A stretch of 56,282 bases of DNA from Verrucomicrobiales bacterium (GTDB lineage Bacteria; Verrucomicrobiota; Verrucomicrobiia; Methylacidiphilales; JAAUTS01): NCBI GenBank assembly GCA_031265365.1, contig JAISCS010000030.1:1-56282 (forward strand), in the 5' to 3' direction. The notes under the pieces were generated by a model. That model had not been told where the DNA came from. It did no database searches and was given only the letters and a program-made list of their open reading frames with translations. The translations under genes and the position numbers were made by a program. Of the stretch, positions 1 to 56,282 are shown in pieces (the stretch's first letter is position 1; the number at the start of each line of letters is the position of its first letter).

Positions 1-64
1 CTGCTGATGGTGAAAAAAGTGGACGCTAGGACCATTGCCGTTATTTTGTGAGCGCACAAAAATC

Positions 65-241
65 AATTCCCCTTCCGTGAAGGGGTGGCCGCGGAGCGGA
101 CGGGGTAGTTCAGCGTTAACAAGGACCTTGCCCCAAACGCGGAACTACCCCGTCGCTCCGCGCCACCCCTTCACGGAAGGGGAATTATTAAGCACTTACC
201 ACACGCCACCGCAATTCCACTGTTCACGGGATAGAACCAAA
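65..241. repeat. Family-A long hairpin, MITE-like element
   Basis: The left arm aattccccttccgtgaaggggtggccgcggagcggacggggtagttcagcgtt (65-117) has a near-perfect reverse complement at 136-186. A tail ending ctgttcacgggatagaacc follows (to 241). Related copies lie at 30422-30625, 43665-43900, 45764-45937 and 52819-53116. Confidence 0.8.
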
Positions 242-362
242 TCATTTTTGGTGCGCGCCAAAATCCTCATCCCCCCCAAAGCCCGCGCCAAAATCCCCTC
301 TTCCCACAACCGGTTTCCAGCTTAACCCATCGCGCCTTCGGATAGCGCCTCCGTTTGATTTT

Positions 363-443
363 TTAACGCAAAGACGCAAAGACTCATGACTAACCTGGTT
401 AAAAGATTCTTGGCGTCTTTGCCCCTTTGCGTCTTTGCGTTAA
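363..443. terminator. Family-B hairpin repeat overlapping the fumC stop codon; terminator-like stem-loop
   Basis: ttaacgcaaagacgcaaagac pairs with ctttgcgtctttgcgttaa across a ~35-nt loop. It sits immediately 3' of fumC (minus strand). Confidence 0.6.
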
Positions 444-1843
444 TTTCCGAATTCCCCAACCATCTGCTCCGGCTTCACCCACTCGTCGAATTGCTCCGGG
501 GTGACGTAGCCGAGTTGCACCGCCATCTCCTTCAGCGTGACGCCCCCCTGGTGCGCTTTTTGCGCGATTTCGGCGGCCGTGTAATAACCGATAGGCGGGT
601 TGAGCGCGGTGACCAGCATCAGCGAGTGGTCAACGTGCCGCCGGATGTTCGCTTCGATGGGTTCGAGACCGGCGGCGCATTTGTCGTTAAAACTGACGCA
701 GCCCTCGCCGAGGAGCCGGGCGCTGTGCAGGAAATTGTAAATCATCACCGGCTTGAACACGTTCAACTCAAACTGCCCGTTCGCGCCGCTGATGTTGATG
801 GTCACGTCGTTGCCGAGGACTTGCGCGGCGAGCATCGTCAGCGCCTCGCACTGCGTGGGGTTGACCTTGCCGGGCATGATGGACGAGCCGGGTTCGTTGT
901 CGGGGAGGCGCAACTCGCCGATGCCGGCGCGCGGGCCGGAGGCGAGCAGGCGCGTGTCGTTGGCGATTTTGAACAGGCTGACGGCGACGGTTTTCAACGC
1001 GCCGTGCGCCTCGACAATGGCGTCGTGCGCGGCCAGCGCCTCGAATTTGTTCGCGGCGCTGACGAACGGCAGGCCGGTGAGTTCGGCGATTTTCGCGGCG
1101 ACCGCGCCGGCGTAGCCGGGCGGCGTGTTGAGGCCGGTGCCGACGGCGGTGCCGCCCAGCGCCAGCTCGGACAAGTGCGCCAGCGAGTTGTTTATCGCGC
1201 GCAAGCCGTGCGTGAGTTGCGCGGCGTAACCGCCGAGTTCCTGCCCCACCGTCAGCGGCGTGGCGTCCATGCAATGCGTGCGCCCGATTTTGACGACGCG
1301 CATGTATTGCCGCGCCTTCGCCGTCAGCGTGTCGCGCAACCGCGTGATGCCGGGGACGGTCGTCTCGACCAACATCCGGTAAGCGGCAATGTGCATGGCC
1401 GTCGGGAACGTGTCGTTGGACGACTGCGATTTGTTCACATCATCGTTGGGATGCAAAAACTTGTCACGGTCAGCGAGCTTGCCGCCATGCAGGACGTGCC
1501 CGCGATACGCGATGACCTCGTTGACGTTCATGTTGCTCTGCGTCCCGCTGCCCGTCTGCCACACCACCAGCGGGAACTCGGCGTCGAGCTGGCCGGCGAG
1601 GATTTCATCGCACACGCTGGCGATGACCTTGGCCTTGTCGCGCGACAACACGCCGAGGTCGCGGTTCGTCAGCGCGGCGGCTTTTTTCAAAATGGCAAAC
1701 GCGCGGATGATTTCGCGCGGCATTTTGTTGATGTCGCGGGCGATGTTGAAATTGTCAATGCTGCGCTGCGTCTGCGCCCCGTAATAAGCGCCGGCGGGCA
1801 CCCGCACCTCGCCCAGCGTGTCATGTTCAACGCGGTAGTCCAT
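440..1843 (-). CDS. fumC: Class II fumarate hydratase
   Basis: Full-length match by eye to FumC, with the motifs [10 protein letters not shown] and [15 protein letters not shown]. The likely start is MDYRVEHD at 1843 rather than the ORF maximum at 1924. Confidence 0.95.
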
Positions 1844-2089
1844 GCCGCTAGGATAAACCACGAATGAGCGCGAATAAACACGAATTTTTTGGGTCACGGT
1901 CAGCGGGGTAATATTACGCGCCAACCGGCAGTTTGCACTTGTGCGTCATACTGCTAGGCGCCGCCGACCATAAACCCCAGGTTGACCTTGTGGCAACACG
2001 CCGTTGACACGCTGGAAAGCCGCTGGCGATGAAAAAATATTGCCACAAATAACTTGTCTCACTGTCAGCGAGTGGTAAACTGGCGGCGT

Positions 2090-3251: not shown

Positions 3252-3683
3252 TTATAGGCAGAGTTCCACTCCCACCGTTTGCGCGGCGGCAGTTAGCGCT
3301 TCGTCCTTGGTCGCCAGCGGCAAGCCGCGCCGGAGGGCGAGTTCGAGGTAGGCGGCGTCGTAGGCGGCGTCGTAGGCGGTGAGTTGGTGGCGGATGGCGA
3401 GGGTGTGGGTTTGCGACCAGGCGTTGGTCATGGTGTCAGGGTCAACGTTAATATCAAAGGCTTGCATTCTGATGAAAAAGTCTTTGGCTTTTTCCATGGT
3501 GGTTCGTTGCCGGCGCACAGCGGTTAGCAAGACATTGCAGATTTCCAGATGCCATAAGGTAGGAACCCACGCGCGCGCGCCATCCGCCAGGCGCTCATGC
3601 AAACGGTCACTTTCTGGAGTGGCCTCGTCCATAAAAATCCACGACAAAGCCGCCGAACTGTCCAATACCAATTCGTTGCTCAT
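3252..3683 (-). CDS. vapC: PIN-domain toxin (VapC family)
   Basis: N-terminal LVLDSSA with the conserved Asp, plus YDAAYLELA and ATKD motifs. A 4-nt ATGA overlap joins it to the upstream antitoxin gene. Confidence 0.85.
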   Translation of the reverse strand: MSNELVLDSSAALSWIFMDEATPESDRLHERLADGARAWVPTLWHLEICNVLLTAVRRQRTTMEKAKDFFIRMQAFDINVDPDTMTNAWSQTHTLAIRHQLTAYDAAYDAAYLELALRRGLPLATKDEALTAAAQTVGVELCL

Positions 3684-4039: not shown

Positions 4040-5116
4040 TTATTCCGCGCCGCCAGCCTTCGCCTTTTTCGCGTCACCGTCAGCGGCGGGGCCGTCGAGC
4101 TTGGCGAGCAGGGCTTTTTCCACGCGGGCGTAGAGGTCGGCGTTGTTCTTCAACTCTTCCTTCGCGGCATCGCGGCCCTGAGCCATTTGCACGCCCTCGA
4201 ACGACAGCCACGCACCGCGTTTCTCGATAACGTTTTGCTCAATTGCGAGGTCGAGCAGCGAGCCGGTCTTGGAGATGCCCTCGTTGTACATGATGTCAAA
4301 CTCCGCCTCGGTGAATGGCGGGGCGACTTTGTTTTTCACCAGCTTGACGCGCGTGCGGTTGCCGGTGACGGTGCCGTCGGCCTGCTTGATGGCGCCGATG
4401 CGGCGGATGTCCACGCGCACGCTGGCGTAGAATTTCAGCGCCTTGCCGCCCGGCGTCGTTTCGGGGTTGCCGAACATCACGCCGATTTTCTCGCGGATTT
4501 GGTTGGTGAAAATGCAAATGGTTTTCGACTTGCTGATGATGGCGGTCAGTTTCCGCATCGCCTGGCTCATCAAGCGCGCTTGCGAACCGACCACCGCGTC
4601 GCCCATCTGCCCCTCCAGCTCGTTCTTCGTGACCAGCGCGGCGACGGAGTCCACCACCAGCACGTCAATCGCGTTGGAGCGAATCAGCGTCTCGGCGATG
4701 GTCAGCGCCTCCTCGCCGGAGTCGGGTTGCGAGACCAGCAACTCGTTCATGTTCACGCCCAGCTTCCGCGCGTAGCCCGGGTCGAGCGCGTGCTCCACGT
4801 CCACGAACGCCGCCGTGCCGCCGCGTTTCTGCGCCTCGGCGACCACGGTCAGCGTCAGCGTGGTTTTGCCGGACGATTCCGGGCCGAAAATCTCGACGAT
4901 GCGCCCGCGCGGGAAGCCGCCCACGCCCAGCGCGCGGTCAATCACGACGCTGCCGGTGGGGATGACCTCGATTTTCAACTTCGCCGCCTCGTCGCCAAGG
5001 CGGAGGATGGAGTTGTCGCCGTACTGCTTGACGATGGACTGGATGGCGAGGTCGAGGTTTTTGCGGTCGCGGCTGTCAGCGGCAGCGGCGGGTTTGTTTT
5101 CGATTCTAGGCGGCAT
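4040..5116 (-). CDS. recA: Recombinase RecA
   Basis: Walker [11 protein letters not shown] and full-length RecA similarity ([30 protein letters not shown]-like). ATG at 5116 (MPPRIENK) is preceded by aagga. Confidence 0.97.
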
Positions 5117-5444
5117 ATATAATCCTTGGTTAAATTTAGGGCAAAGATTTTCCACGCTGACGACAGGATGTCCAGCGCGAATTTGTAAAACTTTGCGTGA
5201 TATTCGTGAACAAACGGCGTGAATGTAAATATTTGTAAAACCGTCTGCATTTACTCTTGTGTCAGCGGGTTAATATTTTGGGGAAAACTCAGGTCATGAA
5301 GAAGTCAAAGCGCGACACGATAGGCGTGGATAATTTAAGGGCTGGATGAGTGGGATGGCCTGTTGTAAAATATCAAATCGCTGAAATTCTCCAGTACTTA
5401 TGGACAAGCCACATAAAACCGAAGAAGAAGAAGGAAAACGCGCA

Positions 5445-5768
5445 ATGAATAATATTAATTTGCCGCACTCAATCCCGTGTATAAAAATTCCCGATGAAAT
5501 ATGGTTTAATATTGTAAGACTAAAACGGTATTCCACAGGTTTTCTAAGTGCAGTAAGACTTATTAACGGCACAATTTTAGAAGACATGATTACCTGTAAT
5601 CGAGGATACATTTTAGGACGTTTTGCGGAAGGACTTGCGGGCGGGCATGGTCATATTGTCAATTCAATGTTGACATTTAAGACGGAAGATATTAGCGCAA
5701 TTAGAGTGCCCGCATTCCATTTTTGGCAATCTCGAAAGTGGATAAAACTGGAAGGAATTACTACTTGA
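5445..5768 (+). CDS. Hypothetical protein in an AT-rich insert between cinA and recA
   Basis: ATG at 5445 is preceded by gaaggaaaa. The GC content is low and I recognise no motif. Its orientation opposes the flanking operon. Confidence 0.4.
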   Translation: MNNINLPHSIPCIKIPDEIWFNIVRLKRYSTGFLSAVRLINGTILEDMITCNRGYILGRFAEGLAGGHGHIVNSMLTFKTEDISAIRVPAFHFWQSRKWIKLEGITT

Positions 5769-5810
5769 ACGAGGACGGTTGTTATTGGTTGTAAAAAATG
5801 AACCGTTGAC

Positions 5811-7049
5811 TCATAACTCCACCAACTTCAATCGCAGCAAATTCAGCGCGAATTGCGCGGCGGTGTGTTTGAAATCGGAGCGGTCGGGGACGAGGAGCTG
5901 ATGGTGTGTCTCAACGCGCGGCTCACCGTCAGCGGCGCGCCACGCGAGGCCAGCGTGCAGCGTGCCGACCGGTTTTCCCACCGTGCCGCCGTCGGGTCCG
6001 GCAATGCCGGTGAGCGCGACCGCCAAGTCGCAGCCGCTGACGGTCAGCGCGCCAAGCGCCATTTCGCGCGCGCACTCGGCGCTGACGGCGCCGTGCTGGC
6101 GCAAGGTTTCGCCGCTGACGTTCAACTCGTCTTGCTTGGACTGGTTGCTGTAGATGACCCAACCACGTTGCAGAACGGCAGACGCGCCGGGCACGTCAGT
6201 CAACCGGCTCGCCACCAGCCCGCCGGTGCAGGATTCGGCAGTGGCGATGGTTTTGTTTTTCGCGCGGGCGCTGGTGATGACGGCTTGCTCCATCGTCGCG
6301 TCACCGTCAGCGTAAACGGCGTCGCCGAGGATGGCGTGGGCGGTGGCGGCGGCTCGATTGACCAACGCACCGTCAGCGGCGATAAAACGCAAATCCACCT
6401 CGCCAAGCCGCGCGCAGTAGCCGATGTCAATGCCATCGCCGAGGTCGCACACGGCTTGCTCGACGCGCTCTTGCACTAACGATTCACCAATGCCGTACAC
6501 CCGCAACGTCCTGACCGTCAGCGGCGGTGTGTCGGCGAATAATTTTCGCAACACCGGCAGCGCGTAATTCTCAAACATCGGCTTCAATTCACACGGCGGT
6601 CCCGGCAGACAAAACACGTGCTTGCCGTCCTTTTGCAACCACAAGCCGGGCGCGCTGCCGTGGTCATTGGGCAACACCGTCGCCCCGCGCGGCACGAACG
6701 CTTGCGCGCGGGTTAACGCGCCCGGCACATGGTGACGCCTGGCGAAGTAGGCGTGAATTTTATCCAAAATTTCCTGATGAAACTCCAGCGGCACGTCGAA
6801 AATCCTAGCGATCAAATCGCGCGTCACATCATCCGAAGTCGGCCCCAAGCCGCCGCTGACCAGCACCACCTCGCTACGGTTCAACGCCTCACGAATAGCG
6901 TCCCCAATCGCCACCCCGTCCGGCACAATCGCCGCCCGCGCCACGCTGACACCCAGCGGCAACAGTTGTTCCGAAAAATAACCGAGGTGCGTGTTCAACA
7001 TCCGCCCCAGCAACAACTCGCTGCCGGTGTTAATGACTTCCAGCTTCAT
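5811..7049 (-). CDS. cinA: CinA-family competence/damage-inducible protein (MoCF-binding domain + PncC-like nicotinamide-nucleotide amidase)
   Basis: MKLEVINTGSELLLG...VVLVSGGLGPTSDDVT at the N-terminus; C-terminal TAESCTGGLVA motif. Confidence 0.93.
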   Translation of the reverse strand: MKLEVINTGSELLLGRMLNTHLGYFSEQLLPLGVSVARAAIVPDGVAIGDAIREALNRSEVVLVSGGLGPTSDDVTRDLIARIFDVPLEFHQEILDKIHAYFARRHHVPGALTRAQAFVPRGATVLPNDHGSAPGLWLQKDGKHVFCLPGPPCELKPMFENYALPVLRKLFADTPPLTVRTLRVYGIGESLVQERVEQAVCDLGDGIDIGYCARLGEVDLRFIAADGALVNRAAATAHAILGDAVYADGDATMEQAVITSARAKNKTIATAESCTGGLVASRLTDVPGASAVLQRGWVIYSNQSKQDELNVSGETLRQHGAVSAECAREMALGALTVSGCDLAVALTGIAGPDGGTVGKPVGTLHAGLAWRAADGEPRVETHHQLLVPDRSDFKHTAAQFALNLLRLKLVEL

Positions 7050-9511
7050 GCAAAGCCCGCCATATCCGCCAAACGAAATTCTTGCTCCGCTACCGGACGG
7101 TTGATTTTACTATCCCATGTCACCGTGAACCAGTGGGTGTCATCGTTTAAATAAAGAATCATCGCCCGCCCATAGACGCGGTGCTCAGCCAGCACTTTAG
7201 GCGCCTCATTCTTATCCGTAAAATCTCGTTTGGTATCCACCAATAATATTTTATCCTCGGTACGCCGACCGTTGATGCCAATGATGAAATCTGGGAAAAA
7301 TCCTTTGCCGTCGGTGCGCAGAACATTCACCGACCAAGGTTCATGCGGTTCATTGCGGTGCCACCACGCCACGATGTTGTTAGGCTCACGGTCTAATTTT
7401 TCAACGAAAAGACGTTCCCAAGTGTTCAAGTTTGGCGGCATGACGCCATAAACATTACGCGGCGACACTGTCAGCGGCCTGTCACTTTGGAGTTCTTTTG
7501 GTAATTCTTCAGTCTCGACAATTTCCATGTGCCGGGCCGTCGCTTCCTTTTGAGCGTTGCGCAATAAGTCAGGATACGCGGCGATGATTACATCCAAAAA
7601 ACTGGCCACTGTTTCCGGTTCACCAGCCTGCGGCATCGCTTCCTCACGCATCACCTCGCGCATTTTTTGCAACAATACACGGCGCAATTCACGGGCGTCG
7701 AACAATTGGTTTTTCAGCAAAAATTTTTGCGCTATTAGCGCCGCGTGTTCTGGTGATACGTCGGCCGCGTATTTGAATTCCTGCTGGACGACACCCGTAA
7801 AAATCTCCAAGGTGCGCTTTTCCACCGACACTTTGTTTTTTAGCGCTTCAAATAACGCGCGGGTGGAGACCTTGAACAGATTGGCGCATTCCTCCTCAAT
7901 GGCCGCATTATCAGTGCCAGCCTCTTGGGATTTGAATTTTCGCGGTACATCCCCGCGCAGTGAACAACAATGGTTCCCATTGTGGTTTTTTGTCCCGCCG
8001 CCCGTTGCGGTCGCTGACGCTGACGGTTTGGGTGCGCCGTCGAAAAATGCGCCGAAGTCAAAACTATCATTTCGTGCGCCGTTGCTGACGGTGGTGGCAA
8101 AGTTATCATGTTCAGCGTTGCCAAATCCCGCGTGTTGCGTTTCCCCTTGCAACACGAAATCAGTCTGCCCGCCATGCTCCACGCCGCTGACGATGGCAGT
8201 ACCGGCGCCAATGTTCATTCTGACCAAGGCGTTGCTGACGGTGGCGTAAGCGGTTTGGATTTGGTTGATGCGTTGCCCGGCCTCGTCAAGCCCGGTCTGC
8301 GTCTTGGGGTCGGCGAGGAATACATAACCATGAGCGAGTTCGTCCGGCAGGGTTTTATTGCGCGCTCTCGCTTGCAACAACCGGTGTGTTCGCAAAATTC
8401 GCCCCACCAACTGCACGCCAAAATCAGCGTCGCGGCTTGCCCGTGTGGAAACCAGCGTGAACGCGCGCGGGGCGTCGAAACCCAGCGCCACCGCCATTTT
8501 AAAAATCAACACCTCGCGCTGCTCGTCGTTCGCCAATGCCAGCAGACCGGCGTCCGGCTCCTCCGCCGTGTGCGTGGCGATTTGTTTCTCGGCGAAGCCC
8601 AACTCCAGCAAACGCTGCCGTAAATTTTCCACCTCACGCGCACCATTGCCCGCCTGTACCAGCAACAGCGGGGTCAACGGGATTTTTAATTCCGCCAACC
8701 GCGCCTTGAGTTGCCGGTGCGCCCGTATCGCGTCACGCAGAGCGGTGCCCGGCAAATCCACCAGCGAACGTTTTGTTTCCTCCACAAAATACGCCATGCA
8801 TTTGACTCCGCGCTTGATAAGTCCGGCGTCAACCGCGTCCGCGCGGCTGACGCTGACGCGATGCAATTCCGCGATGCCAAGCGCTTTTTCAAATTCGCGC
8901 ACGTCGCGGTCATCCGGCGTCGCGGTAACCAAAATGCAATAATCGGGGCGCAAAATTTCGTGAAAAAATTTCGCCGCCTGCGTGTCTTTGCCGAAGCCGT
9001 GATGCGCCTCGTCCACCACCACCCCGAGGCGAAAACCTTGCTCGCGCAGACTCACCGTCAGCGTGTCCACCGACGGATTGCTCTCGCTCTCGCGGCGCAA
9101 ATTGCGCCGGTCAGTCACGCGTGTCGCCACGGTTTGCCATGTGGTTACGAACACATCGCCGGCGCGATTGTTATCCAGCGAGCGGTCATGAGCCAAATCG
9201 CGCAACCGCAATCCGGCACATTGTTCGCGCAAAAAAGCCGCTGTCTGTCCAACCACGCCCTTGAACGGCGCGAACCAAAACCACACGACTTTTTCCTCGC
9301 GGGAAAAATTTTCAATAATATTCCCCGCCATCAGCGTCTTGCCGCTGCCGGTGGGAGCTTCGATGAGCAAATAACCGTTGTGCTTGACCACCGTCGCGCG
9401 CCGCCCCTCATCGTCAGCGGCGATATCCAGTTGTCGCGCTGCTTCCGTGAACAATGCAACACCACTGCCAATGGCTTTTTTCTGAAATTCGACGGGGGTT
9501 TGGAGTTTCAT
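7046..9511 (-). CDS. res: DEAH-box helicase with C-terminal PD-(D/E)xK-like nuclease module (type III restriction Res-like subunit)
   Basis: Helicase motifs EAPTGSGKT, VVDEAHHG and VTATP. The C-terminus carries FFPDFII...ILLVDTKRD. Its stop overlaps the cinA ATG (ATGA). Confidence 0.8.
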   Translation of the reverse strand: MKLQTPVEFQKKAIGSGVALFTEAARQLDIAADDEGRRATVVKHNGYLLIEAPTGSGKTLMAGNIIENFSREEKVVWFWFAPFKGVVGQTAAFLREQCAGLRLRDLAHDRSLDNNRAGDVFVTTWQTVATRVTDRRNLRRESESNPSVDTLTVSLREQGFRLGVVVDEAHHGFGKDTQAAKFFHEILRPDYCILVTATPDDRDVREFEKALGIAELHRVSVSRADAVDAGLIKRGVKCMAYFVEETKRSLVDLPGTALRDAIRAHRQLKARLAELKIPLTPLLLVQAGNGAREVENLRQRLLELGFAEKQIATHTAEEPDAGLLALANDEQREVLIFKMAVALGFDAPRAFTLVSTRASRDADFGVQLVGRILRTHRLLQARARNKTLPDELAHGYVFLADPKTQTGLDEAGQRINQIQTAYATVSNALVRMNIGAGTAIVSGVEHGGQTDFVLQGETQHAGFGNAEHDNFATTVSNGARNDSFDFGAFFDGAPKPSASATATGGGTKNHNGNHCCSLRGDVPRKFKSQEAGTDNAAIEEECANLFKVSTRALFEALKNKVSVEKRTLEIFTGVVQQEFKYAADVSPEHAALIAQKFLLKNQLFDARELRRVLLQKMREVMREEAMPQAGEPETVASFLDVIIAAYPDLLRNAQKEATARHMEIVETEELPKELQSDRPLTVSPRNVYGVMPPNLNTWERLFVEKLDREPNNIVAWWHRNEPHEPWSVNVLRTDGKGFFPDFIIGINGRRTEDKILLVDTKRDFTDKNEAPKVLAEHRVYGRAMILYLNDDTHWFTVTWDSKINRPVAEQEFRLADMAGFA

Positions 9512-9517
9512 GGGAAG

Positions 9518-10216
9518 TTAGTTTAATTGAATCCAAAAGTGGTGAAGTTGAATGGTTGGAGATTTGCAATCAGCCGTATTACGGGGGTGTGAAGAAGTTG
9601 AATATGCTAATCCATTACATTTACTAAATTGGATATTCAATAATTTTTCGCAAGGATTCCACAATACCGGGGCGTCATTTGCCAGTTGGTCAATCCAACC
9701 GTTGATAATAGGATACCAGTCTTTGGGTGTTTGTTCCTGAACATATCCAACGATAATAGCCTTTTCATGTTCTTTGCCATGTTTCCCAAGTTTAAACCGC
9801 TGAATGCCACCAGTTATTTCTCCATTTTCGCCAGTCACATATTCCCGCTCCCTGTCCTTGGTAGGCGCTGGAAGACGCTTTGCTTCTATCAAAAGGATAG
9901 GTTGTGAATAATTATAACTTCTGCCGCTAACCATCACAGTCTCTCGCGGCTTGGCGGCAATATCGACAGAGCGCGAGTTTTCTTCTTCATCCTGTTCGTG
10001 GCGAAAATATATCATGCGATGCGAAATGGTTAAAAAATCACTAAGATTACCATTTAATTTTCTTTCAGGCTTGGTGTGTTTGCCTTTTAGCGCGTCATCA
10101 TTACTCCACGGCAAAAGAGAATTATAAACAAATTCGATAGTTTCTTGGATAAGTGAATCAGGGGGAATTATTTCTTCGCTGGGGCGATTAGAAAATGTGG
10201 GGGGTGGAAGTGCCAT
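9518..10216 (-). CDS. Hypothetical PD-(D/E)xK-fold nuclease candidate
   Basis: SVDIAAKP...(about 24 aa)...ILLIEAKRL fits the D-(x)n-E-x-K pattern. The gene is AT-rich and lies 3 nt downstream of the methyltransferase gene. Confidence 0.5.
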   Translation of the reverse strand: MALPPPTFSNRPSEEIIPPDSLIQETIEFVYNSLLPWSNDDALKGKHTKPERKLNGNLSDFLTISHRMIYFRHEQDEEENSRSVDIAAKPRETVMVSGRSYNYSQPILLIEAKRLPAPTKDREREYVTGENGEITGGIQRFKLGKHGKEHEKAIIVGYVQEQTPKDWYPIINGWIDQLANDAPVLWNPCEKLLNIQFSKCNGLAYSTSSHPRNTADCKSPTIQLHHFWIQLN

Positions 10217-10219
10217 AAG

Positions 10220-13093: not shown

Positions 13094-13105
13094 GGTGAAA
13101 CGAGT

Positions 13106-14767: not shown

Positions 14768-14846
14768 GCGACATTTGAAACTAGCCAGTGAACACTGGCA
14801 CTTCAATTACTTATTACCACTGATTATGACTGGCACATACAAAAAA

Positions 14847-36616: not shown

Positions 36617-36706
36617 AACCACGAATGAACACGAATGGACGCGAATAATTTTGAAATTCATCGTCAGCGGCTGTTTATTCGTGTGAATTCGTGTTCATTC
36701 GTGGTT
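36617..36706. repeat. Family-B hairpin in a divergent intergenic region
   Basis: aaccacgaatgaacacgaatggacgcgaataa pairs with ttattcgtgtgaattcgtgttcattcgtggtt. The loop contains cgtcagcgg. Confidence 0.7.
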
Positions 36707-37295: not shown

Positions 37296-37318
37296 AATAT
37301 GTTTGTTGATTCAATCAA

Positions 37319-42811: not shown

Positions 42812-42829
42812 TGAGCTGGCACCTTTTTT

Positions 42830-43312: not shown

Positions 43313-43413
43313 AAGACATCAGACCTCATTTGTTGATAAATTCTTTTAGCTTCTGGTTTATTTTTAATCGCATTATTGGGTTTTTGGGTTCTTACCCATT
43401 ATCAGTGAAATAG

Positions 43414-43562
43414 GCCCCGTCATGCTGAGCGAAGTTGCGCAGCAACGCAGTCGAAGCATCGGGTTGAGCGGGCGAAAGGCGCTGACCGTGGCGCTGGTGT
43501 GCGGTGGGACCAACCGATTCCTCGACTGTAACAACTGCGTTGTTACGCTCGGAATGACGGGG
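43414..43562. repeat. Family-C hairpin MITE-like element
   Basis: gccccgtcatgctgagcg ... cgctcggaatgacggggc. Related copies lie at 49691-49841 and 55555-55709 (cgtcatcctgagcg ... cgctcaggatgacgg). Confidence 0.75.
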
Positions 43563-43664
43563 CGTGTTTACTGACGGCATGATTATTCCACCGATAACGG
43601 CGAGGAACCTGATTTAACCAATCTTTGTGCTCTTGGCGTTCTTGGTGCCTTTGCGTTAAAAAAT

Positions 43665-43900
43665 GGTTCTATCCCGTGAACAGTGGAATGGCGGTGGCGT
43701 GTGGTAAGCGCAGCATAATTCCCCTTCCGTGAAGGGGTGGCGCGGCGCGACGGGGTAGTTTAGCGTTGGGACAGGCGCAAGACGAAAGCAGAAAGTTGAA
43801 AACAGAAATAATTTCAGCTTTCTGCTTTCGGCTTTCCCATTTCCTGTAACGCTGAACTACCCCGTCCGCTCCGCGGCCACCCCTTCACGGAAGGGGAATT
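43665..43900. repeat. Family-A MITE-like element with a nested small hairpin in its loop
   Basis: ggttctatcccgtgaacag terminus and long arms aattccccttccgtgaaggggtggcgcgg.../...ccgcggccaccccttcacggaaggggaatt. The centre, gaaagcagaaagttgaaaacagaaataatttcagctttctgctttc, recurs at 52819-52850. Confidence 0.8.
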
Positions 43901-43970
43901 CGCTGACGCAGGCAGCAGGGCCGGTGGGGATGGGCGGCGTCAGCGCTTCCACTGCTAACAGCGAGGAACC

Positions 43971-44009
43971 GTAATCACCTCCACGGTTGCGTGTGCTTTC
44001 GTGCCCTTT
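43971..44009. repeat. 39-bp direct repeat, copy 2
   Basis: gtaatcacctccacggttgcgtgtgctttcgtgcccttt; see 42771-42809. Confidence 0.9.
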
Positions 44010-44088
44010 TATCAGGAAATGGGATTGGTTTTTTACCCGTTAAAATATTCTTGATTGTGTTCTTAAATTTGAGAGCATACAAAAAAAC

Positions 44089-44544
44089 ATGCCGGAGATT
44101 TATCAAGAAAAAATGAAACTTGTTTTTACCCGGCTTAATTCCAACTGGAATGCGGAACCCAATAACCCAAACCCTCAGGCAGTATGGTTGGGGAAAGATT
44201 TAAGACTTCAATTTTATATGAATCCATTTCAATTCCCTCAATTCAAAAAAGGTGATATTGGCATCATCACATTTGCCGACTGTGCAAGATATCGGTTTGG
44301 CGAAATAAACGATGAAGGATGGTATCGCGGACAATGTAGATTTAGCCAGGTCATTCCATGGGGAGAGTTTTACGAAGTTTCAGGAAATCTAAAACTTGAT
44401 GAAATTCCGGATGATTGGATTACCAGAACCAAAGACCAATTCAAACGACGGCATTTTCTGTTTTATTTTCGAGATAATGAATTTGAGTGCGACACTATGG
44501 ATTGGAAGTTGGAAATACAAAAAGGGGTCAGGCTTCATTTTTGA
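44089..44544 (+). CDS. Hypothetical protein (possible orphan immunity-type protein)
   Basis: A clean 151-aa AT-rich ORF following the second direct repeat. I recognise no motif; the immunity call rests on context only. Confidence 0.5.
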   Translation: MPEIYQEKMKLVFTRLNSNWNAEPNNPNPQAVWLGKDLRLQFYMNPFQFPQFKKGDIGIITFADCARYRFGEINDEGWYRGQCRFSQVIPWGEFYEVSGNLKLDEIPDDWITRTKDQFKRRHFLFYFRDNEFECDTMDWKLEIQKGVRLHF

Positions 44545-44628
44545 CCAATTCTTTTTTGAGGTCTTTTCAATCCTGCTCATCTATCAATAAATGAAAAACT
44601 GCTTCCTTTTCCTGCCCCCTTTTTCGCA

Positions 44629-45599: not shown

Positions 45600-45763
45600 G
45601 ATGGTGTTAAGTTAACGGCCCGCCGGTTCAAGTCCAGCGCAATGTGCCACACAGACAGGATGGTCTGTGCCACGTTGATGCTTTCCCTTAAATTTGGTTC
45701 CTCGCTGTTAGCAGTGGAAGCGTTGACGCCCCCCCCTCACCGCCCCGGCCTTCTGCGCCAGCA

Positions 45764-45937
45764 AATTCCCCTTCCGTGAAGGGGTGGCCGCGGAGCGGAC
45801 GGGGTAGTTCAGCGTTTACAGGAACCTCGCCCCAAACGCTGAACTACCCCGTCGCTCCGCGCCACCCCTTCACGGAATGGGAATTATGCTCCGCTTACCT
45901 CACGCCACTGCCATTCCTCTGATAACGGGATAGAACC
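45764..45937. repeat. Family-A MITE-like element
   Basis: Same arms as 65-186 (near identical), with tail ...ctgataacgggatagaacc. Confidence 0.8.
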
Positions 45938-46022: not shown

Positions 46023-46472
46023 ATGACTACAAAACGATTGCGTTCGCGCGGTTTCACTCTCGTGGAAGTGTTCCTTTCGCTGGGAGTGTTGACGACGGCG
46101 GCGGCGGGTTTGCTGGCGGCGCTGCCGGTGGCCCTCAAGAACGGCGCCGACGCCGCGCGCACCGGCACGGCGGGAATGATTGCCGAGTCCCTGTTGGCGG
46201 ATTTCAGCGCCTTCGGGAAGTTGCGGCTCGCCGCTGACGCTGACACGACCGAATTCCTCGCGCTCGACGACGACGGTAAAATTTTGCGCGCGGTCGGTGC
46301 GGACATTTTCGCCGTCGGTGACGCCACCGCCAGTTTTCTCGCGTCGCTCCGCCGCGAACCGGCGCGGTCCAGCCTGTTCGCGCTGACCGTCACGGTCGAG
46401 TGGCCCGCCGCCGCGCCCGCCAGTCACCGTCAGCGCCGGCATTTCGGCACCCTGCTCCCGCCATGTCCCTGA
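46023..46472 (+). CDS. Pseudopilin with prepilin-type N-terminal cleavage/methylation motif
   Basis: RSRGFTLVEVFLSLGVL (G|FTLxE). Confidence 0.8.
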   Translation: MTTKRLRSRGFTLVEVFLSLGVLTTAAAGLLAALPVALKNGADAARTGTAGMIAESLLADFSAFGKLRLAADADTTEFLALDDDGKILRAVGADIFAVGDATASFLASLRREPARSSLFALTVTVEWPAAAPASHRQRRHFGTLLPPCP

Positions 46473-47131
46473 AACACCCAGCCGCCGCCTTCACGTTGAC
46501 GGAACTACTCGCCAGCTGCGCCATTCTCTCCGTCATGCTGTTGGCCGGCGCCGGCTTGGTGCAATTCACGGCCCGCTCAGCCGCGCGCGCGCGACAACAC
46601 GCCGAGTTTCACCGCCAAGCCCGCGCCGCCATCCGCGTCTTGCGAAACGATTTTCGCCACGTCACCGTCAGCGGTGACACGCCGTTGTATCTCAACCCGC
46701 CGCCGGAGATTGCGGCAATGCCCGACCAAGCGCCCGCCGCCGACGGTGACACGGTGTTCTTTTTCACCAACCAGCCGCGCTTTGGCCGGAGCGAACTTTG
46801 CGCCGCTGGCTATTATCTCGACGCCGCCCGCCGACTGCGCCGTTATTTCAAGGATAGCGACGCGACCTGGCAAAGTGCCGGCACTGACAGCGGTTTCCTG
46901 CCGCACGCGCTCGACCCCGCCAGGCCGTTGTTTCCCATCGTCAGCGGCGCGGCGGAAAACGAGACGTTGCTGGTCAATGTCAGCGCCTTCCGCGTGCGCG
47001 CCCGGCGCACCGACACCTCGGTCATCACCGACTCGCCGCTGACCGAGCGGCCCGCTTTGCTGGAAATAACCTTCAAACCGCTGGAGCGCGACCTGACGCA
47101 TGAATTTACCATTTGCATCCCATGCCAGTAA
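46463..47131 (+). CDS. Pseudopilin (GspJ-like position)
   Basis: AAAFTLTELLASCAILSVMLL. The ATG at 46463 overlaps the upstream stop. Confidence 0.7.
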   Translation: MSLKHPAAAFTLTELLASCAILSVMLLAGAGLVQFTARSAARARQHAEFHRQARAAIRVLRNDFRHVTVSGDTPLYLNPPPEIAAMPDQAPAADGDTVFFFTNQPRFGRSELCAAGYYLDAARRLRRYFKDSDATWQSAGTDSGFLPHALDPARPLFPIVSGAAENETLLVNVSAFRVRARRTDTSVITDSPLTERPALLEITFKPLERDLTHEFTICIPCQ

Positions 47132-49670
47132 ACGAGGCTTTGCCCTTGTCGTCATGCTGGTTGTCATGCTGGCGCTGGGCACACTGGTGGCGCTGGCGCT
47201 CACCGTCGTCCGGTTCGAGGTGAACGACAGCGCCCTGCACGCCGAAAAAATCCGCGCCGACTGGGCCGCGCGCGCCGCGCTGAACGAGGCCGTCGCACGC
47301 CTGCTCGACGCCGTGACTGTCAGCGGCAGCGCCGACCGCATGTTTGTCACCAGCCAGCTTGAGCCGCCGGCGGAGTTCGCCAACCTCTCACCCATTCTCA
47401 CCATCAGCGGCAACGGCCAAATCCATCCGCTCATCTCCACCGAGATTCAACCGTTTGTCGTCGACGATGACGCCGTGCCCACCGCGTTGTTCCAAGAACG
47501 CGACGGCGCTGATCTGAACCGCGACGGCCTCATCGTCAGCGCCACGCCCGCGCCGGATTACACGGTCAAATTGCTGGAACTAAAAAACGACGACGACATC
47601 GTGGCGCGTTACGGTTATCAAGTTTTCGACGAGGAGGCGCGGCTCGACGCGCGGCTGCACCGCGCCGCCGACCGTGACGGTTTCGGCCAGAGCGCGGCGG
47701 AGATTCCGCCGGCCGTGCTCACCGGAACGGAGCAAGAATTATTGCTGACTTTTCCAAAATTACCGGCAAGTCCGCTGGCCTTCGCGCAAGCCGTGGACAG
47801 TGTCCGCCGCCGCGAGGAATTAAAACATTTTTTCGGTCTGCGCGGCGCTGACGGTGAGGAGGTCATTCCGCGCGGGTTGCCGGAGGCGGGCCGGCCCAAG
47901 TATAATATCAACGACCTCGCCGCTGACGCCGAACTCGCGCCCGAACAGCGCGCCGAAAAAATCGCCGCCATCATTGACCGCAACCTGCCCGATTTCAAAA
48001 AACGCGACCCCAGCCTCGCCGGTGAATCCGCCGACGGTCAGCGCCGTTATCTCCAACGCCTCGCCGCGTCCATCGTGGAATACGTTGACCCCGGCGCCAA
48101 CTGCGTGACCGTCGGCGGCGAGCCGGCGGGGCGCGGCCTGTTCCCGCTGGTCGTCGGCGTCGCCGAGCGGTATTTATGGGTCGGCGGCGACAGCGTCAGC
48201 GCCGTCATTGAGACGCGCGCCTTCGCGCAAGTGTGGAACCCATGCACCATGACCGTCAGCGGCCGGGCGCGCCTCCGGCTCGCCAACCGCCAGCGCGTCA
48301 CCTTCGGCGCCGGCATCGTCACGCCGCTCGACGACTACGACGCCGTCGCTGACGATGAGATTATGGTCAGACCGAACGAGTTCAAGGTCATCGCCTTCCC
48401 CGCCGCGCGCCAGACTTTCACCAGTCCGACCGCCAGCGTCAGCGGCCCGCGCTGGGCCGGCTCGCCCGCCGATTCCGCCGACCAAACCACGCACGAGCCG
48501 TTTGAATTTTTCTGGAACGGCGCGCGCGTGGACATGCATCGCCGCGCGCCCGTCGGCCCCGGCACGGCCAGCGCCGGCTTGGTACGCAATGCCAAAACCC
48601 TCGAATTCAACCGAGTTCACTATCAGGTTAATACTATTCCGACCTTCGCCGGCGTGAACGTGGTCGGCGACCCGCGCGCGACATACCTCGGCAATTACGA
48701 CTGGGGTTCCACCATCAGCGGCGACGACACCTACGCGCGCAACACCCACTGGGGCGGGCGCGGCTTGCGCGGCGGTGATTACCGGCAGGATTTCGTCGCC
48801 ACCTGGGTGGCGCGCGATTACATTCGCGCGAATCCGCCGGTGGGCAACCCGCCCGGTAGCGTGAACGTCAGCCCCGACCAAGTGCCGTTGCCTTACGACG
48901 CCGACCGTGACGCCCCGAACGCGCCGTTTTTTATTCGCAAGGACCGGATGAAAAGCATCGGCGAACTCGGCCATATTTTCGACCCCGCGCAGGCCAACGA
49001 CGCGGGCCTCGCGCCGAAGGGCGGCTCGCCGGCGAGCGTCTTTGTCAGCGGCGGTGGGCGGACGCTGCGCGTGGGCCAGCCGGAGTTTGCCTACTGGGAC
49101 CGTGACGGTTGGCGGGCGCTGGAGTTATTGGACATTTTTACCGTGAATCCGGTCGCCGCTGACGGTGATTATCCGCGCATGGCGGGGCGCATCAACATCA
49201 ACACCGCGCCGCGCGAGGTGCTGGCGGCGTTGTTGCACAACATTGAAATCAAGTCCGACGAGGAGGCCAATGCTGGCGGTGACATTGGCAAACTCGACAC
49301 CGCGCGGTTGGCGGAAGTCATTATCAGCGAGCGTCGGAAAGCGCCGTTTGAAAAATTGTCCGACTTGCGCCGCGTGTTGCCCGCGCTCAATCGCGCCGAC
49401 GCTTACCAGCCCAGACTCGGCACGGGCGCTGGTGGCGACCCGCCGCTGGTGATGGACCGCGCGCGCGAGGAGGCGTTTGCCAAGTTCTGCAACCTTGTCA
49501 CCGTGCAATCGTGCAACTACCGCGTGTGCGCCGTCGGCCAGGCGCTGGCCGCTGACGGTCGCGTCGCCGCCGTGACTTTTCTGACCGCCATCGTCAGCGT
49601 CGAGCCGGAAAAAGACGCCGATGGCCGGACCGTTTTCAAACCGAGGGTTATTTATGTTTACCAGCAATAA
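47100..49670 (+). CDS. Large GspK-like pseudopilin
   Basis: KRGFALVVMLVVMLALGTLV has no Glu at +5, as in GspK. The protein is 856 aa and overlaps the upstream gene. Confidence 0.65.
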   Translation: MNLPFASHASKRGFALVVMLVVMLALGTLVALALTVVRFEVNDSALHAEKIRADWAARAALNEAVARLLDAVTVSGSADRMFVTSQLEPPAEFANLSPILTISGNGQIHPLISTEIQPFVVDDDAVPTALFQERDGADLNRDGLIVSATPAPDYTVKLLELKNDDDIVARYGYQVFDEEARLDARLHRAADRDGFGQSAAEIPPAVLTGTEQELLLTFPKLPASPLAFAQAVDSVRRREELKHFFGLRGADGEEVIPRGLPEAGRPKYNINDLAADAELAPEQRAEKIAAIIDRNLPDFKKRDPSLAGESADGQRRYLQRLAASIVEYVDPGANCVTVGGEPAGRGLFPLVVGVAERYLWVGGDSVSAVIETRAFAQVWNPCTMTVSGRARLRLANRQRVTFGAGIVTPLDDYDAVADDEIMVRPNEFKVIAFPAARQTFTSPTASVSGPRWAGSPADSADQTTHEPFEFFWNGARVDMHRRAPVGPGTASAGLVRNAKTLEFNRVHYQVNTIPTFAGVNVVGDPRATYLGNYDWGSTISGDDTYARNTHWGGRGLRGGDYRQDFVATWVARDYIRANPPVGNPPGSVNVSPDQVPLPYDADRDAPNAPFFIRKDRMKSIGELGHIFDPAQANDAGLAPKGGSPASVFVSGGGRTLRVGQPEFAYWDRDGWRALELLDIFTVNPVAADGDYPRMAGRININTAPREVLAALLHNIEIKSDEEANAGGDIGKLDTARLAEVIISERRKAPFEKLSDLRRVLPALNRADAYQPRLGTGAGGDPPLVMDRAREEAFAKFCNLVTVQSCNYRVCAVGQALAADGRVAAVTFLTAIVSVEPEKDADGRTVFKPRVIYVYQQ

Positions 49671-51587: not shown

Positions 51588-52736
51588 TTAACATTCGCGG
51601 TAATCGCGCGTGCGCGGCCATTGCGGGAGCGGCGCGGCGCCGGCGCGGGGCTGGCCGGGGGTGAGTTCCTTCGCGCGCCGGTAGCCGGCGACCAGGTTTT
51701 CCCACGGCACCTCGACGCCCGTGACGTTGCTGGTGAACAGGAACAGGCCGCGCCCGTTATCCGTGGCGTCGAAGAAATAATCCACCTCGCGGCGCACCTC
51801 GTCGGGCGTGCCGAACGGCAGTGTGCGGGTGACGCTCAGCCCAGCGAAGAACAGCAAATCGCGCCCGCCGGCGGCTTTTTTCCCGCGCAGTTCGGGGATT
51901 TCCAAGCCCAGCTCGTATTGAAATCCTTGCAGCCCGCTGAAGCCCGTCGCGATGAAATCATCCACCACCGGCCGGATGTCGCCGTCGCAATGATGCACCA
52001 CACGCACGCCCGCCGCCACCAGCGGGGCGAGGATGTCCTTGACGACGGGGAAATAATACCGGCGCAGTAATTCGGGGCTGACCATCGGGCCGGAGTTGTT
52101 GCACAAATCCTCGCCGCAGAACAGCAGCGGGACGAGGTCCAGCTCGGCGTAGAGCGGGGCGAGGAGCTTGGCGCGCTCGCGGGCGACGAGGGCGCGGACG
52201 CGCCAGATTTTGCCAACCGCCTCCGGATACAGCGCGCAGGCGGAGAGGAAGGCGATGTAGCCGTACTTTTGATACAACGCGAACGGGCCGCCGAGGTCCC
52301 AGAAATTCGGCAACGGCTCCAAGCCGCCCCAGTCGGCGCGCGCGTGGGCGAAGATGTCGAGGAAGCGCTGGCGTTCCCGCACGCGGTCAAAGTCCTTGAG
52401 CGCCTCGTCCTCGTCGTCGGGCAACTGCTCGGCGACCTCCAGCAACACCTCCGGCTCGATGTCCTGAAAGTCCGATTCCTGCACAGAGCCGGCGCGCAGT
52501 TGCTCAAGTTCCTTGGGATAGACGGGCATGGTGACGATGCCGTCGGTGTCGAGTGCGAGGTTAGCGCGGACCATGCCTTGCTCCGGGTTCTGCAAATATT
52601 CCTCGACCGTGGTGCCGGCGATGGCGGCGAGGTTGCGGGCGCTGAGCATCCAGCCGCCGATGGACGGCACGCGGTCAACTTCGAGGCCGAGGGCTTGGCG
52701 GCGGAGGCGTTCTTTGCGGGAGAGGGCGGCGGGCAT
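51588..52736 (-). CDS. Uroporphyrinogen decarboxylase (URO-D)-like family protein
   Basis: General URO-D/MtaA-like pattern (...VVHHCDGDIRPVVDDFIATGFSGLQGFQ...). Start MPAALSRKERL at 52736. The family call is made by eye. Confidence 0.6.
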   Translation of the reverse strand: MPAALSRKERLRRQALGLEVDRVPSIGGWMLSARNLAAIAGTTVEEYLQNPEQGMVRANLALDTDGIVTMPVYPKELEQLRAGSVQESDFQDIEPEVLLEVAEQLPDDEDEALKDFDRVRERQRFLDIFAHARADWGGLEPLPNFWDLGGPFALYQKYGYIAFLSACALYPEAVGKIWRVRALVARERAKLLAPLYAELDLVPLLFCGEDLCNNSGPMVSPELLRRYYFPVVKDILAPLVAAGVRVVHHCDGDIRPVVDDFIATGFSGLQGFQYELGLEIPELRGKKAAGGRDLLFFAGLSVTRTLPFGTPDEVRREVDYFFDATDNGRGLFLFTSNVTGVEVPWENLVAGYRRAKELTPGQPRAGAAPLPQWPRTRDYREC

Positions 52737-52818
52737 AAAGTGATGAAGGTTAGCGTAAAAGCGGGGGGATGGATATAGAAAATTCACCGCAGAGGCGCGG
52801 GGATGCGGAGTTTGTTGG

Positions 52819-55420: not shown

Positions 55421-55554
55421 ATACAGAAAAAATAATCCTCCGCTATTTGCGCGTCAAGAAAAAATATTATTTTTTTTCGCCGCTGCCGGCACCACCGATG
55501 TCACCATCAGCGCCGGTCTTGTCCATATATGGTAATTCATCATATATTGGCAGA

Positions 55555-55709
55555 GTACTCCGTCATCCTGAGCGTAGCACCGTAGGTGCGAAGTCGAAGG
55601 AGCGGTCGGGTCAGGGTCTGCGGATTAGTTGCTGCCAGCCGGTTAGTCAGTGCTTGGCCGGTCCTTCGACTACGCCCTTTCAGGGCTACGCTCAGGATGA
55701 CGGGGTACT
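55555..55709. repeat. Family-C hairpin MITE-like element
   Basis: gtactccgtcatcctgagcgtagc ... gctacgctcaggatgacggggtac. Confidence 0.8.
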
Positions 55710-55934
55710 CGGCCAATGTTATGATGAATTATCATGGCAGTTTCCCGCCACTCGCAATGGTATCGCTAACGGCGGAATGACCCACACCGACTAAGACAAA
55801 TTCCCTTCTTCGAGCGGGGAATTTACCGGCGCGATTGTTCCGGCATTAGCTATTCCATCAATAACCGCGAGGAACCCTAAACCAAAAAAATCTTTGCGAA
55901 CCTTTGTCCCTTCGCGCCTTTGCGTCAAATTATT

Positions 55935-56282
55935 TCACAACAACGCCTTCGCCGCGCTGACGAAACCGGCGGCGCCGAGGCCGTATTTGTCATACAACTC
56001 ATCCGCGGTGTAGGCGGACTGGCCGAAGACGCCGGGGATGCCGAGACTCCGCCCGCTGATGCTCACGCCCGCGTTGACGAGCGCGTGGAATAATTGCGCG
56101 CCGAAGCCGCTGTTCAACTGGTGGTCCTCGGCGACGACGACGCGGCCCTTGGTCTTGCGCACTGCCGCGCTGATGGTGGGCAGGTCGATGCGGTTGACGA
56201 AGGGGCTGTTGATGACCGTCGCCGACACACCGTCAGCGGCCAGTTGGTCGGCGGCGGCGAGGGCTTTGCCGACTAGCGGGCC
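55935..56282 (-). CDS. Transketolase family protein, C-terminal part (5' end lies outside the window)
   Basis: ...VVVAEDHQLNSGFGAQL...GIPGVFGQSAYTADELYDKYGL...AAKALL* is typical of the transketolase C-terminal domain. The ORF is open to the window edge. Confidence 0.8.
   Translation of the reverse strand, partial: GPLVGKALAAADQLAADGVSATVINSPFVNRIDLPTISAAVRKTKGRVVVAEDHQLNSGFGAQLFHALVNAGVSISGRSLGIPGVFGQSAYTADELYDKYGLGAAGFVSAAKALL

Follow-up and report, generated by a model that had tools for sequence, protein, structure and literature searches.

Why should one short DNA word recur several times per kilobase along a bacterial contig, within genes and between them, and what could keep it there? 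The question is raised by contig JAISCS010000030.1 of an uncultured Verrucomicrobiota metagenome-assembled genome (MAG), a stretch of 56,282 bp with 55.8% GC that was analysed over its whole length and is called the window below. The plus strand of the window contains GTCAGCG 109 times and CGCTGAC 86 times, which gives 195 copies of this seven-nucleotide core or 3.46/kb, and the longer form ACC[GA]TCAGCG is found 43 times in the forward and 22 times in the reverse orientation. The original prediction, made from the same sequence, had estimated about 190 cores (about 106 and 85) and about 42:23 for the 10-mer, and both figures proved nearly exact. As we show below, the window carries a hyper-abundant, lineage-specific genomic word; the class of such words is already known, and what is new is its presence in this phylum and its architecture.

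When both strands were collapsed, the top 7-mer and 8-mer and all the leading 9- to 12-mers of the window were pieces of one word. Alignment of all cores resulted in the consensus T-C-A-c-C-G-T-C-A-G-C-G-g-C, and the full word, TCAcCGTCAGCGgC (also written TCAcCGTCAGCG), is an asymmetric sequence of 12–14 bp carrying about 14 bits of information; it does not match its reverse complement, GCcCGCTGACGgTGA, and is therefore non-palindromic. We refer to this form as D1. The hard core TCAGCG, of which there are 284 copies in the window, is near-invariant, the 5' half TCAyCR is soft and allows substitutions, and a G at position +7 is present in only 45% of the copies. Two directly repeated hexamers TCA[C/G]CG make up the word, a build that its overlapping tandem forms also display. 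Searching with an iterated position weight matrix (PWM) of 14 positions and 14 bits, we detected 284 sites at a threshold of ≥12 bits (5.05/kb) compared with 28.5 in codon-order shuffles, and 128 sites at ≥16 bits compared with 9.6; the PWM sites cover about 6% of all bases of the window. All seven transition variants of the core were enriched 2.1–5.3-fold over the order-1 expectation, and transversion variants were mostly less enriched than transitions, with none strongly depleted. Such a halo of transition variants is as expected from a balance between drive and mutational decay. The main forms of the word are located as follows.

1 to 56282, both strands: D1 word population, with copies in all native genes and in intergenic DNA.
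4074 to 4085, plus strand: perfect 12-mer TCACCGTCAGCG in recA, one of 17 perfect copies.
5923, 6301, 9052, 15588, 16429, 17833, 19190, 26927, 46424 and 46662, plus strand: other perfect 12-mers.
2569, 22174, 27173, 28603, 47846 and 49157, minus strand: other perfect 12-mers.
4848 to 4860, plus strand: overlapping tandem GTCAGCGTCAGCG in recA, in a 6-bp register, one of seven.
8012, 30732, 37106, 42041 and 46232, minus strand, and 50921, plus strand: other overlapping tandems.

The expected sequence was present at each of the nine example positions listed in the original prediction, as was the fumC peptide ATPLTVGQE; the two tandem forms named there, at 8012 and 30732, were also found, and five further ones exist.

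The abundance of the word is far beyond what base composition, codon usage or the encoded proteins can produce. Markov models of order 0, 1, 2 and 3 predicted 9.3, 9.2, 20.9 and 46 copies of the 7-mer, respectively. Codon-order shuffles gave 27.5 ± 3.7 copies, and synonymous-codon shuffles, in which every protein is kept, gave 50.8 ± 5.5 with a maximum of 65. For the 10-mer ACCGTCAGCG, 46 copies were observed against 0.16–0.44 expected under Markov orders 0–2 (1.15/kb versus <0.01/kb), and the shuffles contained 0.3 (codon-order) and 4.7 (synonymous-codon). In 109 comparison loci of 50–65% GC, together 1.64 Mb, the pooled density of the core was 0.21/kb and the maximum 0.78/kb. The claim of an unusual signal was to be given up if codon-aware shuffles reproduced the counts or if genomes of similar GC showed equal abundance; the shuffles yielded 28–51 copies against the 195 observed, and the comparison loci 0.21/kb against 3.46/kb.

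The distribution of the copies shows that the word acts at the level of DNA and not at the level of proteins or codons. Cores occupy all five stop-free reading frames (the sixth would hold TGA) and contribute the unrelated peptides VS (57 copies), AD (51), LT (48), SA (14) and QR (7). Within genes, 78 cores are read on the coding strand and 99 on the opposite strand. The 18 intergenic cores make up 9.2% of the total, and 8.8% of the window is non-coding, so that the densities in the two kinds of DNA are equal. Housekeeping genes unrelated to each other, namely fumC, recA, cinA, ribBA and pepF, all carry cores. A frame-independent signal resembling the uptake sequences of other bacteria, rather than a protein or codon effect, had been proposed from the beginning, and this reading is borne out by the frames and by the clade specificity and dialect described below. 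Core orientation was 109:86 (56:44, P = 0.11) and that of the hexamer 152:132 (P = 0.26). An orientation bias had been suggested from the 10-mer; its 43:22 distribution does deviate from parity (P = 0.012), but neither the 7-mer nor the 6-mer shows a significant skew. Gene strand (83% on the minus strand) and negative GC skew suggest that the window lies in a single replichore, and no consistent polarity or switch was seen across its 8-kb bins. A polar architecture word such as the FtsK-orienting polar sequences (KOPS) was rejected on the 56:44 orientation and the lack of a switch along the window. The spacing of cores in native DNA is Poisson-like, with a coefficient of variation of 1.08.

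Inverted pairs of copies are found at a few places, and one copy lies in a hairpin loop.

6035 to 6049, both strands: back-to-back inverted pair CGCTGACGGTCAGCG inside cinA, coding.
15692 to 15708 and 19332 to 19346, both strands: similar inverted pairs, coding, no terminator.
29955 to 29988, both strands: intergenic inverted pair GTCAGCGGC...GCCGCTGAC, cores 27 bp apart, between divergent genes.
36663 to 36669, plus strand: core in the loop of a 74-nt hairpin (36630 to 36703) in a divergent intergenic region.

Four inverted pairs had been reported previously; those at 6035–6049, 15692–15708 and 19332–19346 were recovered, but at 26448–26461 only one arm has the full 7-mer. The copy reported in a hairpin loop was recovered as well, at 36663. 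This hairpin has a folding energy of −27.9 kcal/mol (z = −2.76) and lies between a deoxyhypusine-synthase-like gene and the next plus-strand gene. The intergenic pair at 29955–29988 is outside a terminator position. A second intergenic inverted pair, 43901/43939, is within the AT-rich island 42812–44620 and adjoins the second copy of a palindromic element resembling a miniature inverted-repeat transposable element (MITE). This element of about 125–190 bp is present in three copies (30–220, 43680–43940 and 45730–45920), the middle one with a 62-bp insert; long inverted repeats (AATTCCCCTTCCGTGAAGGGGTGGCCGCGGAGCGGACGGGGTAGTTCAGCGTT and its complement) form its arms, in which the near-motif TTCAGCG occurs. 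Rfam gave no match anywhere in the window, the MITE-like element included. The word itself was rejected as a repetitive extragenic palindrome (REP) or MITE: it is a non-palindromic sequence of 12–14 bp with 91% of its copies in coding DNA, whereas those elements are intergenic imperfect palindromes of ≥20 bp. Large paralogous genes occupy the minus strand at 15801–29790 and encode TPR proteins of 882 and 905 amino acids and CsgG-like lipoproteins of 511, 483, 1066 and 320 amino acids; the paralogues at 18415–19950 and 22667–24118 share a segment with the same inverted motif pair (19304/19332 and 23451/23479).

To place the word among genomes, over-representation was scored in 166 loci as the z-score of the top 7-mer of each locus under an order-2 Markov model. 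The window reached 38, with its close relative L084 also standing out, L082 and L083 reached 15–18 and L023 19.7, and all the remaining loci were below 13.2. L081, L083 and L085 are alternative assemblies 100% identical to the window, L082 and L084, respectively. Since independent Logan (SRR14710922) and JGI/NCBI assemblies agree, an assembly artefact was rejected. The best RecA matches in species-representative genomes come from MAGs of Spartobacteria and Chthoniobacterales and reach at most 79% identity. RecA-based scans of genomes and metagenome contigs returned relatives at ≤79% identity only, none with the word, and these served as negative controls. CinA (NCBI protein MDR1190398.1 for the window) placed the close relatives in two groups, to which an outgroup was compared. 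Further assemblies of the two clades contain the proteins MDR1305141.1 and MDR2462802.1/MDR2463253.1 (D1) and MDR0533257.1 (D2), and the source samples are JGI 3300042591–3300042643 and SRR147108xx–109xx.

Clade D1 (L084, L169, L167): CinA 74–78% identical to that of the window; same extended consensus, 2.5–5.2 cores/kb.
Clade D2 (L082, L168, L170): CinA 73–76% identical; tTCGyC[G/A]TTAGCG, with TTAGCG at 2.0–2.9/kb.
Outgroup (L086, a MAG labelled Methylacidiphilales): CinA 61% identical; neither form.

The ComEC-encoding contig L171, which belongs to D1, also carries the D1 word, with the same extended consensus and within the density range of the other D1 loci. The D2 dialect, TCGyCRTTAGCG, has a weaker variant with TTGGCG, and its orientation (24:20) is without skew. 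Two of the 12 positions separate it from the D1 word: the first hexamer has G in place of A, and the second has T in place of C. The D1 word is scarce in D2, with the TCAGCG hexamer at 0.9–1.0/kb and the core at 0.28/kb in L082. In a neighbour-joining tree of CinA, a single gene represented by eight sequences, D1 and D2 are reciprocally monophyletic sister clades. Comparison of sister genomes had been named as a check of clade specificity, and its outcome is clear: D1 shares the word, D2 has a dialect of it and the outgroup has neither. Viral contigs containing TCACCGTCAGCGGC were also inspected, and among at least 120 matches none was host-like, with densities of at most 1.9/kb in contigs >4 kb. 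In one of the denser contigs, L218 (IMG/VR 3300025470_000044), the core happens to be part of a 15-bp tandem repeat, GTGAGGTCAGCGCCC, with about 18 units at 3272–3540. This repeat has the look of a gene for pentapeptide repeats and has no relation to the dispersed word.

Orthologous genes allowed single sites to be followed between the clades. Three genes of the window were used.

440 to 1924, minus strand: fumC, 7 cores; at four CGCTGA sites the D2 orthologue reads CGCTAA in the same codon, a synonymous change of CTG to CTA.
4040 to 5155, minus strand: recA, 5 cores; CGCTGAC at alignment position 316, CGCTAAC in D2.
5811 to 7049, minus strand: cinA, 10 cores (8.1/kb); used for the phylogeny and the site-conservation tests.

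The TCAGCG sites of the window cinA and recA are kept in D1 relatives at 64–73%, compared with 25–42% for other hexamers (pooled Fisher P = 5e-5). Their retention in D2 is 0–22%, at or below background, and in the outgroup it is 1 of 18. L082 has the exact D2 form at 8 of 27 aligned window sites, and all eight conversions are synonymous, CTG to CTA or GTC to GTT; examples are alignment positions 595, 667, 1081 and 1387 of fumC, 316 of recA, and 973 and 1018 of cinA. D2 sites also exist where D1 has no motif. CTA accounts for only 4.4% of Leu codons in L082, and 18 of its 26 CTA codons stand in the context CG-CTA-A, compared with 7 of 215 CTG codons in CG-CTG-A (P = 1e-15); the corresponding numbers for CTG in CG-CTG-A are 73 of 478 in the window and 6 of 278 in the outgroup. 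Thus the word overrides codon preference.

A different word was seen in locus L023 (positions 1–20966 of JBJEVQ010000025.1, a Candidatus Spyradosoma sp. MAG of the Opitutales), whose z-score is second only to those of the window and its duplicate L081 among the 166 loci. The sequence gCGGGAACGc, unrelated to the word of the window, occurs there in 55 copies in 21 kb (2.6/kb), with an orientation of 29:26, in all six frames and with 9 copies intergenic. This may mean that another order of the phylum has its own, independent hyper-abundant word.

Within the window, the word is rich in native DNA and sparse in DNA that appears to be acquired. With a GC mask applied to this window only, core density was 4.05/kb in native and 1.5/kb in AT-rich DNA. 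Three regions deserve separate mention.

9518 to 13093, minus strand: inserted block of 3.6 kb, AT-rich (43% GC), with a single core.
13106 to 14806, minus strand: gene for a Type III-like Mod methyltransferase, 8 TCAGCG-type hexamers.
51588 to 52787, minus strand: 65%-GC gene weakly similar to URO-D/MtaA-family methyltransferases, no core.

The other AT-rich intervals contain one core (5160–5800), none (37296–37679) and three (42812–44620). The statement that the word is absent from every AT-rich island was thus too strong; with 5 cores across four intervals, these islands are depleted and not empty. The inserted block holds an MmeI/Eco57I-like methyltransferase-endonuclease gene (10220–13093) and a gene for a 232-amino-acid protein (9518–10216). 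It splits a Type III-like restriction-modification pair on the minus strand (7046–14806), separating Mod (13106–14806, PF01555) from its partner, a ResIII helicase (7046–9511); in the homologous locus L292, only a small PDDEXK gene lies between Mod and Res. The Mod family is found at 60–76% identity in Lentisphaerae, Luteolibacter, Methylobacter, cyanobacteria and other groups. In two homologues, 76% and 73% identical and encoded by genomes that lack the word, none of the eight hexamer sites of the window gene is occupied by a motif. Variable positions of the protein, at which amino acids were replaced, account for most of the hexamers; VSG, for instance, stands where the homologues have VGA or AGA, and TVSGD where they have CGTDD or TGPED. 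On these alignments, the Mod gene is an example of ongoing accumulation of the word in a mobile gene. No sister-MAG copy of Mod was present among the homologues listed, and Mod was rejected as the driver of the word because its family is mobile across phyla. The GC-rich gene at 51588–52787 has no core where about 4.9 are expected at native density (Poisson P ~0.008). A GC-rich donor may have supplied it recently, in which case the word flags foreign DNA that would escape notice by base composition alone.

If the word served DNA uptake, competence genes should be encoded by the genomes that carry it. Full-length ComEC is encoded on L171, whose 4.8 kb carry 22 cores. L171 and L167 stem from one JGI sample, and the accession of this ComEC is near that of the L167 CinA; the ComEC-bearing contig belongs to a genome of the motif clade D1. 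Absence of competence genes had been given as an outcome that would speak against uptake, and ComEC is encoded in this clade. The window itself encodes recA and cinA, together with a group of pilin-like genes.

46023 to 49670, plus strand: pilin-like (pseudopilin) cluster of three genes with prepilin-type N-termini.
46023 to 46472, plus strand: pilin-like gene 1, N-terminal RGFTLVEV.
46400 to 47131, plus strand: pilin-like gene 2, AAFTLTEL.
47100 to 49670, plus strand: pilin-like gene 3, GspK-like, 856 amino acids.

Choosing open reading frames by length only miscalls 46023–46472 as a minus-strand frame. Uptake sequences have the minor pilin ComP as their receptor in Neisseria and a predicted one, ComN, in Pasteurellaceae. 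Under the uptake hypothesis the pilin-like cluster offers candidates for a receptor or pilus and nothing more. Together, comEC, recA, cinA and the pilin-like proteins are weakly consistent with uptake.

How does the word compare with described systems? The DNA uptake sequence (DUS) of Neisseriaceae is the 12-mer AT-GCCGTCTGAA with its dialects, and the uptake signal sequence (USS) of Pasteurellaceae has the 9-mer core AAGTGCGGT or ACAAGCGGT with flanks. Like these, the word is an asymmetric sequence of 9–14 bp with a hard core, softer flanks and a halo of one-off variants; it is present at about one copy per kb or more in both orientations, with no replichore polarity; it lies inside genes in several frames at protein-tolerant sites; and it is rich in native and sparse in acquired DNA, with phylogeny-following dialects a few positions apart. 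Dialects that follow phylogeny and accumulation in the core genome are hallmarks of DUS (PMC3630211). The word differs from DUS and USS in its sequence, its phylum and its build as a direct repeat of two hexamers. The 10-mer ACCGTCAGCG (for example at 4075–4084) and the Neisseria DUS share CCGTC.G in register, 6 of 10 positions, which is probably a coincidence. A search of the literature on the word, on uptake sequences in Verrucomicrobia and on DUS-like or USS-like elements returned no description of the word, in agreement with the earlier statement that no described element has this sequence. Uptake sequences were still treated as confined to two proteobacterial families in October 2025 (bioRxiv 10.1101/2025.10.24.684340).

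The second system to be compared is HIP1 (GCGATCGC), the highly iterated palindrome of cyanobacteria. Like HIP1, the word has more than one copy per gene, is mostly coding and has enriched one-mismatch variants, and its sites are conserved above background (64–73% versus 25–42%) with lineage-specific variants. The HIP1 variants GGGATCCC, TCGATCGA and CAGGCCTG likewise have conserved sites and are lineage-specific (PMC5861425). Unlike the word, which is asymmetric, HIPs are palindromic octamers tied to cognate orphan methyltransferases; no clade-conserved methyltransferase was found in the window. HIP1 reportedly promotes transformation, and a role as an uptake signal has been suggested for it (bioRxiv 10.1101/2024.09.10.611283; 10.64898/2026.06.24.733823). 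With Chi and KOPS the word has in common that it is short, species-specific and enriched in the core genome and would act as a self signal. Those signals, unlike the word with its 56:44 orientation, are strongly co-oriented with replication, and they are 5–8 nt long and far less dense.

Taken together, the force behind the word is required to act on DNA, to read 12–14 bp including a degenerate R, to be symmetric with respect to replication and transcription, to be lineage-specific and to be able to shift its specificity by two bases between sister clades. These demands therefore point to recognition by a putative sequence-specific DNA-binding protein. To our knowledge, biased DNA uptake is the only experimentally established mechanism for non-polar, asymmetric, hyper-abundant words with phylogeny-congruent dialects, and because of this, together with ComEC, recA, cinA and the pilin-like proteins, we rank an uptake tag first. 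On this analysis the word might be a DUS/USS-like tag of self DNA kept by molecular drive, probably through biased uptake, an explanation to which we give a little less than an even chance. In such a model, a sequence-specific DNA-binding protein would read the word on double-stranded DNA in either orientation, and word-bearing fragments would be bound and imported preferentially in natural transformation. RecA-mediated replacement would then spread motif-creating alleles in the population wherever protein function tolerates them, and this molecular drive would hold the word at very high copy number. A shift of receptor specificity by two positions in the sister clade would lead to conversion of old sites and creation of new ones.

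Several observations weigh against an uptake tag. About 5 PWM sites/kb and about 6% of bases place the word nearer to HIP1 than to DUS and USS, which cover up to 1% of a chromosome (PMC3630211). About half of DUS/USS copies are in terminators, often as inverted repeats (bioRxiv 10.1101/2025.10.24.684340). The word, with 9.2% of its copies intergenic, shows no enrichment in terminators or in terminator-forming inverted repeats; terminator-like hairpins in the window are no more frequent than in shuffles, no motif pair forms any of them, and close inverted pairs lie in coding DNA except for the two intergenic ones. The unusually even spacing that was sought in the window was not found. The data cover 56 kb of the window genome and no more than 21 kb of any relative. 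A PDB sequence search with two of the pilin-like proteins gave no match to a solved structure, ComP included, and the searchable literature holds no report of natural competence in Verrucomicrobiota. ComEC, moreover, is nearly universal. In its density and mostly coding location the word resembles HIP1 no less than it resembles DUS/USS. The terminator feature fails, and since DUS and USS are defined by function, we do not class the word as either.

The main rival to an uptake tag, the explanation nearest to HIP1, holds that the word is kept by a function in cis, as the site of a nucleoid-organising protein or the target of an orphan methyltransferase, with no uptake bias and with dialects arising as the protein and its sites co-evolve. 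It accounts for more than one copy per gene, the mostly coding location, the conserved sites and the lineage variants, all as in HIP1, and for the missing terminator association. It fits less well with an asymmetric word of 12–14 bp, HIPs being 8-bp palindromes, and the only methyltransferase of the window at native motif density belongs to a family spread over phyla and has no sister-MAG homologue listed. HIP1 itself has recently been tied to transformation, so this explanation, which we regard as unlikely but worth keeping in view, may merge with that of an uptake tag. Accumulation without any function would be expected if a sequence-specific mutation or repair bias, such as mismatch correction of the very-short-patch (VSP) type or gene conversion biased by a motif-specific endonuclease, turned near-motifs into the word. 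Such a neutral by-product would appear in all native DNA, in any gene, frame and strand, and in a resident foreign gene, as was seen, and both changes between D1 and D2, A to G and C to T, are transitions. VSP-type repair should, however, deplete its substrate, and no single-substitution neighbour is depleted (GTTAGCG, 17 copies versus about 6 expected; GTCAGTG, 8 versus about 4). Repair of single mismatches would not specify 12–14 positions with a degenerate R either, there is no strand asymmetry, and many D2 sites are new, at positions without a D1 motif. We consider a neutral bias improbable.

A role like that of Chi, in which RecBCD or AddAB would recognise the word on single-stranded DNA and self DNA would thereby be marked for repair instead of degradation, is compatible with the higher density in native than in acquired DNA and with the 43:22 orientation of the 10-mer. 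The 3' part of the word, CAGCGG, also contains AGCGG, the Chi sequence of Bacillus subtilis; the G at +7 is present in only 45% of copies, and AGCGG is therefore not the selected unit. A Chi/KOPS-type signal had been put forward as the alternative to uptake, and the orientation data disfavour it. With 109:86 for the core, a Chi-type skew of 75% is rejected (P = 7e-9), the bins show no polarity despite the signs of a single replichore, and PWM sites of ≥16 bits (74:54), the D2 dialect and the Opitutales word are similarly balanced. A word of 14 bits at 5 copies/kb is also far beyond any Chi known to us, and we regard a Chi-like role as very doubtful. The most trivial explanation, in which favoured peptides, codon pairs or paralogous families produce the counts, can draw on the 51 copies that synonymous-codon shuffles still yield, part of the signal being written into proteins and codon usage, and on the paralogous gene cluster at 15.8–29.8 kb. 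It is refuted by the frame, shuffle and codon-context tests: 195 copies stand against 51 ± 5.5 with all proteins unchanged, five frames give unrelated peptides, intergenic density equals coding density, unrelated housekeeping genes carry the word, and D2 employs the rare codon CTA specifically at motif sites. Its probability is in our view negligible.

Sequence-guided DNA uptake is known from two proteobacterial families only, and a remote third case would bear on the debate over the origin of such words, in which molecular drive, kin recognition and genome maintenance have been considered. It is conceivable, though we lean slightly against it, that the word represents a third, independently evolved uptake-sequence system and the first outside Proteobacteria, with tandem hexamers, two dialects and a density several-fold that of DUS/USS, and that together with the Opitutales word it reflects a recurrent strategy. 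The case offers two young dialects in sister clades, orthologous sites in the middle of conversion and a foreign gene gaining the word, which enables comparative tests of receptor–motif co-evolution and estimates of the strength of drive on proteins and codons, with about 6% of bases involved, rare codons recruited and amino acids replaced. The word is also usable as a barcode for binning contigs of the lineage and for flagging foreign DNA. If the uptake system and the Opitutales word are what they may be, kin-biased transformation would be recurrent in uncultured bacteria and detectable by k-mer statistics alone. If the word does not serve uptake, it would still point to an abundant, novel system that binds or modifies DNA in a sequence-specific way, in a phylum that has been little studied.

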